A DNA stretch of 486 bases from Escherichia coli (GTDB lineage: Bacteria; Pseudomonadota; Gammaproteobacteria; Enterobacterales; Enterobacteriaceae). The stretch lies in the NCBI RefSeq assembly GCF_003334405.1, contig NZ_QOWM01000064.1; one strand, 5' to 3'. A program made the translations under genes and the position numbers. The first letter of the stretch is position 1. Every line of letters begins with the position of its first letter. Of this stretch, positions 1 to 486 are shown piece by piece. The notes beneath the pieces are model-generated. The model had not been told where the DNA came from and made no database searches. It saw only the letters and a program-made list of their open reading frames with translations.

Positions 1-486
1 GAAGCTGCGCAGCGTTTCCCGGTGCAGGCGGTCGCGGGTGTACTCCACCAGCGGTGTGTCGCCGAGTTTCATGCCTGACAGCCAGCCGCTGCCGTAGGTC
101 AGCCATTCCACGGCGGGCAGGCTGTCCGGTATACAGCGGTTCGCCAGTCCCTGTGCGTTGTACGCATGTCTGGTCTCATGCTGCCAGAGCAGTGCTTCCG
201 TCTGCGGATGATGCACCGTCAGGTGTTCACTGGCGAGGCGGCCTTTACTGTCATAACCATAGTGCACCGTCACCCGGTGCCCTTCGCTGATATGGCTGAT
301 GTCTGTCAGCCAGCCGCGTTCGTCATACTGCCACCGCTCTGCGGTTTCGCCATTCACGGTGCGGTGCGTGAGGCGGTCTGCTTCGTCATAGTGCCAGTGG
401 GTGACCAGCCCCTCATCCTCGCTGCGGATAAGTTTGCCGGTCAGGTCGTGGTGATAACGCTGTGTGCGGCCGTCAAAGCCGGTTTC
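1..486 (-). CDS. Rhs-family YD-repeat protein, internal fragment of the conserved core (partial at both ends)
   Basis: Minus-strand frame with codons ending at + position 486 is open across the whole window (162 codons, no stop; translated by hand). The product has periodic YD-type motifs (RYHHDLTGKLI, WHYDEADRLT, WQYDERGWLT, HYGYDSKGRLAS, VEYTRDRL) spaced about 21-24 residues apart. GC is about 62% (301/486 by hand count). The paralog (rhsA/B/C/D-like) cannot be assigned from 486 bp, so no symbol is given. Confidence 0.88.
25..48 (-). repeat. YD-like repeat unit, degenerate (protein-level): VEYTRDRL
   Basis: Minus-strand codons gtg gag tac acc cgc gac cgc ctg. Tyr and Asp are separated by two residues, followed by RL, and the unit is in phase with the repeat periodicity. 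Confidence 0.45.
45..52 (-). other. Chi octamer (5'-GCTGGTGG-3') on the minus strand
   Basis: Plus strand 45..52 reads CCACCAGC, the exact reverse complement of GCTGGTGG. The match is exact; whether it functions as a RecBCD hotspot depends on the host, which is unknown. Confidence 0.5.
235..264 (-). repeat. YD repeat unit, canonical (protein-level): HYGYDSKGRL, matching YxYDxxGRL
   Basis: Minus-strand codons cac tat ggt tat gac agt aaa ggc cgc ctc. The plus-strand GTCATA at 250..255 is the reverse complement of TAT GAC (Tyr-Asp). Confidence 0.8.
304..333 (-). repeat. YD repeat unit (protein-level): WQYDERGWLT
   Basis: Minus-strand codons tgg cag tat gac gaa cgc ggc tgg ctg aca. Plus-strand GTCATA at 322..327 encodes the YD. 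Confidence 0.7.
367..396 (-). repeat. YD repeat unit, diverged (protein-level): WHYDEADRLT
   Basis: Minus-strand codons tgg cac tat gac gaa gca gac cgc ctc acg. Plus-strand GTCATA at 385..390 encodes the YD. Asp replaces the consensus Gly before RL. Confidence 0.65.
427..459 (-). repeat. YD-like repeat unit, degenerate (protein-level): RYHHDLTGKLI
   Basis: Minus-strand codons cgt tat cac cac gac ctg acc ggc aaa ctt atc. Matches a Y-x-x-D-x-x-G-x-L-I pattern, in phase with the ~22-residue periodicity of the other units. Confidence 0.5.

Follow-up and report, generated by a model that had tools for sequence, protein, structure and literature searches.

An ordinary internal piece of the Rhs core in a 486-nucleotide window from Escherichia coli

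Rhs proteins and their described relatives

Rhs (rearrangement hot spot) elements have been known in Escherichia coli K-12 since the 1980s. Their 3.7-kb core, which is present in multiple copies, is a substrate of RecA-dependent unequal crossovers, and the Rhs name originates from this property. The cage-plus-toxin mechanism of Rhs proteins is structurally established. Judging from characterised homologues, YD repeats would form a beta-barrel cage around the C-terminal toxin, and aspartyl autoproteolysis at the DPxGL motif, together with an N-terminal site, would release the toxin (PMC8636562). Once freed, the toxin is expected to act in the target cell and thereby to poison neighbouring bacteria (PMC8636562, PMC3150448). 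By analogy with the same homologues, the ORF located directly downstream probably encodes a cognate immunity protein that neutralises the tip (PMC3150448). Orphan tip/immunity cassettes may serve as a reservoir for tip replacement (PMC3150448).

[quoted passage not shown] The solved effectors are equipped with a PAAR or prePAAR domain, an EagR chaperone and a partner VgrG as clear adaptors to the T6SS, whose genes lie next to theirs. The RhsA/B/C clade of E. coli is unlike them in that it has no adjacent vgrG and its PAAR match is sub-threshold. The PxxxxDPxGL/aspartyl-protease plug of the solved effectors is present in K-12 RhsC too. Full-length K-12 RhsC matches Pseudomonas aeruginosa Tse5 (8cp6) at 1e-125, and also matches 7q97, 8qja, Tse15 and 7pq5. 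The peptide encoded by the window (the whole stretch of DNA analysed here, 486 nucleotides in length) aligns to residues 577-731 of Tse5 with E = 1.2e-20, that is, to a homologous YD cage. The residues of the window are predicted to form part of the cage wall and to have a structural role, being neither catalytic nor specificity-determining; the window covers the invariant cage wall only.

Several other systems resemble Rhs in organization or in fold. CdiA/CdiI likewise combines a large conserved delivery region, a boundary motif (VENN, as compared with PxxxxDPxGL in Rhs) and a variable tip, and is accompanied by a cognate immunity gene and by downstream orphan tip/immunity cassettes (PMC3150448). 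Unlike Rhs, CdiA is built of filamentous haemagglutinin repeats, depends on two-partner secretion and has no sequence similarity to the window. The YD-repeat beta-barrel itself is shared with Tc-toxin TcB/TcC and with teneurin, and TcC autoproteolytically releases its enclosed tip (PMC8636562). TcB/TcC and teneurin are distant relatives of the window, whose peptide matches none of them at E <= 1e-3.

Coding frame and family assignment of the window

The preliminary description of this DNA proposed a stop-free minus-strand frame of 162 codons, YD and other tyrosine-containing motifs distributed along it, and a period of about 22 residues. Translation of minus-strand frame 1 (window 1-486) indeed gives 162 codons with 0 stops. 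Minus-strand frames 2 and 3 each contain several stops, and the longest ORF of the plus strand is 78 aa. All motifs were found at the residues where they had been placed: Y11-H-H-D14, Y33-D34, Y54-D55, Y78-D79 (plus Y76), Y109-N, Y131-G and Y149-T-R-D152. Spacings between these seven units are 22, 21, 24, 31, 22 and 18 residues, with a mean of 23, close to the period originally given and in line with the tandem YDxxGRL(I/T)-type repeats of Rhs core proteins, whose period is about 21-22 residues.

Since 452 of 5,000 dinucleotide-preserving shuffles (9%) of this window of 62% G+C also contain a fully open frame, the open frame by itself is weak evidence and is not significant. It is the profile matches and homology, not the open frame, that carry significance for the window. 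G+C content at codon positions 1, 2 and 3 of minus-strand frame 1 is 0.67, 0.45 and 0.74, respectively, as expected for coding sequence. At the DNA level, a search for tandem periodicity in the window found just short direct repeats, each 15-21 nt long and present twice, and one pair of direct repeats located 63 nt apart mirrors YD codons. The repeat is thus seen at the protein level, not at the DNA level.

A profile search against RHS- and YD-repeat families, suggested at the outset as a check, gave matches with three models. The NCBIfam model RHS_core (NF041261) matches residues 1-162 of the window peptide with its positions 675-836 of 1261 (E = 3.6e-102, 343 bits; the model has a whole-protein cut-off of 2000 bits, which a fragment of 162 aa is too short to reach). 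Full-length K-12 RhsC scores 2683.5 bits against the same cut-off of 2000. TIGR01643 (YD_repeat_2x) scores 22.4 bits on the window peptide, above its 15.8-bit cut-off, and Pfam RHS_repeat (PF05593) matches the peptide twice, with E = 2.8e-5 and 1.3e-3. In the region of the degenerate tyrosine units the repeat register is kept, and the alignment with the Tse5 shell extends through residue 160. Features of the window and of the related K-12 locus are listed in Table 1.

Table 1. Features of the 486-nt window and of the K-12 rhsC locus (L001)
Feature	Position	Strand	Basis
Internal coding segment of rhs core ORF, RhsA/B/C clade, rhsC type; open at both ends	1..486	-	Stop-free frame, RHS_core match, K-12 rhsC identity, Tse5 alignment
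Degenerate YD unit Y11-H-H-D14	445..456	-	Motif position
Pfam RHS_repeat unit, residues 14-48; Y33-D34 at 385-390	343..447	-	PF05593 i-E = 2.8e-5; TIGR01643 residues 13-52
Pfam RHS_repeat unit, residues 54-88; Y54-D55 at 322-327, Y78-D79 at 250-255	223..327	-	PF05593 i-E = 1.3e-3
Three degenerate Tyr units: Y109-N at 157-162, Y131-G at 91-96, Y149-T-R-D152 at 31-42	31..162	-	Motif positions
5-nt patch GCTTC (plus strand), TCATT in K-12 rhsC	194..198	-	Sole three differences from K-12 rhsC
Orphan core, tip and ybfC, then ISAs1 pseudogenes	K-12 locus L001 5414-6934 and 2217-4622		Standard Rhs element layout

In the K-12 rhsC gene (b0700; WP_000015200.1), which has 1397 codons, the counterpart of the window is codons 667-828, and the window therefore lies in the middle of the core. 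It is identical with K-12 RhsC at 160 of 162 residues and with the gene at 483 of 486 nucleotides. The window and K-12 RhsC are in the same register in the core, and a G+C content of 62% is typical of the core. Taken with the RHS_core positions, the 99.4% identity to this part of rhsC bears out the initial reading of the window as a slice from inside an Rhs core. We are almost certain that the window lies midway in the conserved core ORF of an Rhs element of E. coli that belongs to the RhsA/B/C clade and has a backbone of the rhsC type. It is just as safe to say that the protein is a polymorphic toxin of about 1,400 residues, of whose shell the window encodes about seven YD-repeat units. No evidence contradicting the assignment to the Rhs core was encountered.

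YD repeats are common to Rhs proteins, Tc-toxin TcB/TcC, WapA-type wall-associated proteins and teneurin-like proteins, and the window might in principle belong to one of these other families. Full-length RhsC does match YenC2 and teneurin-like chains, but weakly and only over the C-terminal plug, and Pfam TEN_YD-shell reaches no better than E = 0.08 on the C-terminal half of RhsC. A PDB search with the window peptide retrieved bacterial Rhs chains only, with no TcC or teneurin match at E <= 1e-3. With nucleotide identity of 99.4% to E. coli rhsC across the whole window and an RHS_core equivalog match that is in register (E = 3.6e-102), another YD-repeat family is refuted for practical purposes, and we leave it a barely perceptible probability. 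Hardly any more credit can be given to the idea that the relevant feature of the window lies on the plus strand or is non-coding, be it the 78-aa ORF, a small RNA, a promoter or a terminator. The ORF does exist (54-290 on the plus strand, with a GTG start) and a few imperfect inverted repeats are present in the window. Against this, no PADLOC family matches the ORF, which runs antisense to a coding frame with strong support; most likely, the ORF is a by-product of the G+C-rich complementary strand, which is poor in stops. The inverted repeats, 72-82% complementary with arms of 17-19 nt, are at chance level. Rfam gave no match at E <= 1 in the window, and no promoter-like or terminator-like sites were found in it.

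Copies of the core in E. coli genomes and the patch at 194-198

Of 5,426 complete E. coli genomes, 3,881 gave megablast matches to the window; these amount to 11,208 places, at a median of three per genome. All places except one (11,207 of 11,208) are chromosomal. They are annotated as rhsC, rhsA, rhsB or "RHS element core protein", and most annotated copies are full-length. The best matches (99.4%, 483/486) are found in rhsC of K-12-type strains. Since most E. coli genomes carry the core in about three copies, there is nothing new in the window, which agrees with the earlier remark that these 486 bp hold nothing novel: they represent an ordinary rhsC-like core, of which the median genome has three copies. 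The window is an already known, ordinary internal piece of the Rhs core. As a dispersed repeat with this copy number, the 3.7-kb core would provide a substrate for the rearrangements that gave the elements their name.

When the 162-aa peptide was used as query, the retrieved 90%-cluster representatives, at most 96% identical to it, were nearly all incomplete Rhs proteins from tiny contigs (350-840 bp). This suggests that short-read assemblies of E. coli are routinely broken up at the multi-copy rhs core, and the window of 486 bases may have originated in a context of this kind too. Besides disrupting assemblies built from short reads, the core can give rise to chromosomal rearrangements.

An exact copy of the window was not found by megablast in the 5,426 complete E. 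coli genomes, the minimum being three mismatches. In the comparison with K-12 rhsC these are substitutions at positions 194, 196 and 198, which affect residues 97-98: Asn-Glu in K-12 RhsC is replaced by Glu-Ala in the window. The GCTTC patch also occurs in K-12 rhsA and rhsB, and in rhsA, rhsB and rhsC of O26, O111 and O103 strains. Because 7-28 further positions separate these GCTTC-bearing genes from the window, the window is best described as a backbone of the rhsC type with a common GCTTC patch. No complete E. coli genome among the 5,426 contains this combination of rhsC backbone and GCTTC with fewer than three mismatches. Likewise, a 71-nt exact pattern spanning the patch had no match in species-representative genomes, and a 126-nt pattern from the window had none in JGI metagenomes.

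The combination represents either an unsampled allele or a short-tract exchange between paralogs, and either would be unremarkable for this family. A more far-reaching interpretation is that the window comes from an rhsC-type allele absent from the 5,426 genomes, possibly bears, in a 5-nt patch copied from rhsA/rhsB-type sequence, the footprint of short-tract gene conversion between rhs paralogs, and is possibly joined, 1.3 kb to the left, to an undescribed tip/immunity pair. We regard it as rather unlikely.

Organization of related loci: tips, downstream genes and N-terminus

In K-12, the rhsC gene reads leftward from the window, and the gene order is rhsC, ybfB, an orphan RHS core fragment, ybfC and ISAs1 remnants. 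The rhsC start codon lies rightward of the window at a distance of 1,998 nt, and the stop codon 1,710 nt beyond window position 1. Rhs_assc_core (TIGR03696) covers residues 1170-1247 of K-12 RhsC, and the boundary motif PISNIDPLGL occupies residues 1238-1247, so that the core ends 1,257 nt beyond window position 1. The motif is followed by an AT-rich tip of 150 aa. Core, tip and ybfB have G+C contents of 0.613, 0.413 and 0.312, respectively. The E. coli genome as a whole has a G+C content of about 51%. With 0.619 over its entire length, the window shares the G+C-rich character of the core (about 60% or more).

The ybfB gene (108 aa) overlaps the 3' end of rhsC, and YbfB is the presumed immunity protein. 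The RhsC tip and YbfB (L001 6965-7743) matched no family of NCBIfam, Pfam or PADLOC, and the activity of this pair appears to be uncharacterised in these libraries. To the left of ybfB, the orphan rhs core fragment covers RHS_core positions 908-1261 and has its own distinct tip, after which ybfC is located. Three ISAs1-family (H-repeat) transposase pseudogenes lie past ybfC.

The rhsA and rhsB loci follow the same plan as rhsC, with yibA (HEAT repeat) and yhhH (PF15631) as the respective downstream genes. The last 300 residues of RhsC (from two strains), RhsA, RhsB and the K-12 orphan were aligned. Their C-termini are near-identical up to DPxGL (DSMGL in the orphan) and unrelated past this motif. 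The small gene after each tip differs as well, being ybfB, yibA, yhhH or ybfC. This layout of core, boundary, variable tip and small gene is the classical Rhs architecture. Because the core is nearly unchanged across rhsA, rhsB and rhsC, whose tips differ, the window is uninformative as to which tip is attached to it.

The preliminary description placed the variable tip and the immunity gene to the left of the window and advised extending the contig several kb past position 1. The direction holds at every related locus, where the gene runs leftward to PxxxxDPxGL, a tip of low G+C and a small gene. The distance is of the right scale too: in K-12, counting from position 1, the boundary is reached after about 1.26 kb and the stop after about 1.71 kb, and an extension of several kb therefore fits. 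The window is accordingly useful as an annotation flag: a polymorphic tip and its immunity gene are to be expected in the parent sequence 1.3-2 kb further left.

A separate question is whether the rhs gene from which the window comes is intact. It might be a frameshifted, IS-interrupted or truncated copy, a relic that serves as a recombination substrate only. Such copies do occur: truncated cores and remnants of ISAs1 abound at Rhs loci, and this segment is often represented in databases by incomplete proteins from contigs of 350-840 bp. In strain E2865 the annotation gives rhsB as frameshifted (locus L004 7090-11312), though over the window region the gene is near-identical to intact copies. 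The example of E2865 implies that the intactness of an rhs gene is not judgeable from a slice of its core. Yet the 486 bases are in frame and intact, with no stop arising from the three substitutions that set them apart from K-12 rhsC. Moreover, the orphan core of the K-12 rhsC locus starts at profile position 908, downstream of the positions 675-836 covered by the window, and annotated copies at the megablast matches are mostly full-length. Altogether, origin from a defective copy appears improbable.

For the opposite end of the gene, a look to the right of the window for an N-terminus linked to PAAR or VgrG had been suggested, but the relatives do not clearly bear out such a linkage. No vgrG or other T6SS gene is present within 9 kb of rhsA, rhsB and rhsC at six related loci, and Pfam PAAR_motif has i-E = 0.23 on K-12 RhsC, a vestigial, sub-threshold match of 18 residues (3-20). 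DUF6531 is significant in the same protein (residues 46-123, E = 1.1e-17). The more general statement that Rhs proteins are often linked to T6SS stands for the family at large and is not demonstrated for the RhsA/B/C clade. In an in-silico survey of EHEC EDL933, rhsA-D are located outside vgrG islands, and the authors call it unclear whether RhsA/B/C are exported by a VgrG at all, and by which one (PMC7216683). The long rhs genes of EDL933 are reported to carry a PAAR domain (PMC7216683).

Genes flanking the related loci are ybfA-kdp at rhsC, yibF-selAB at rhsA and nikR at rhsB. The sequence encoding the N-terminus of K-12 RhsC (L001 11325-11484) includes one "PAAR" tetrapeptide.
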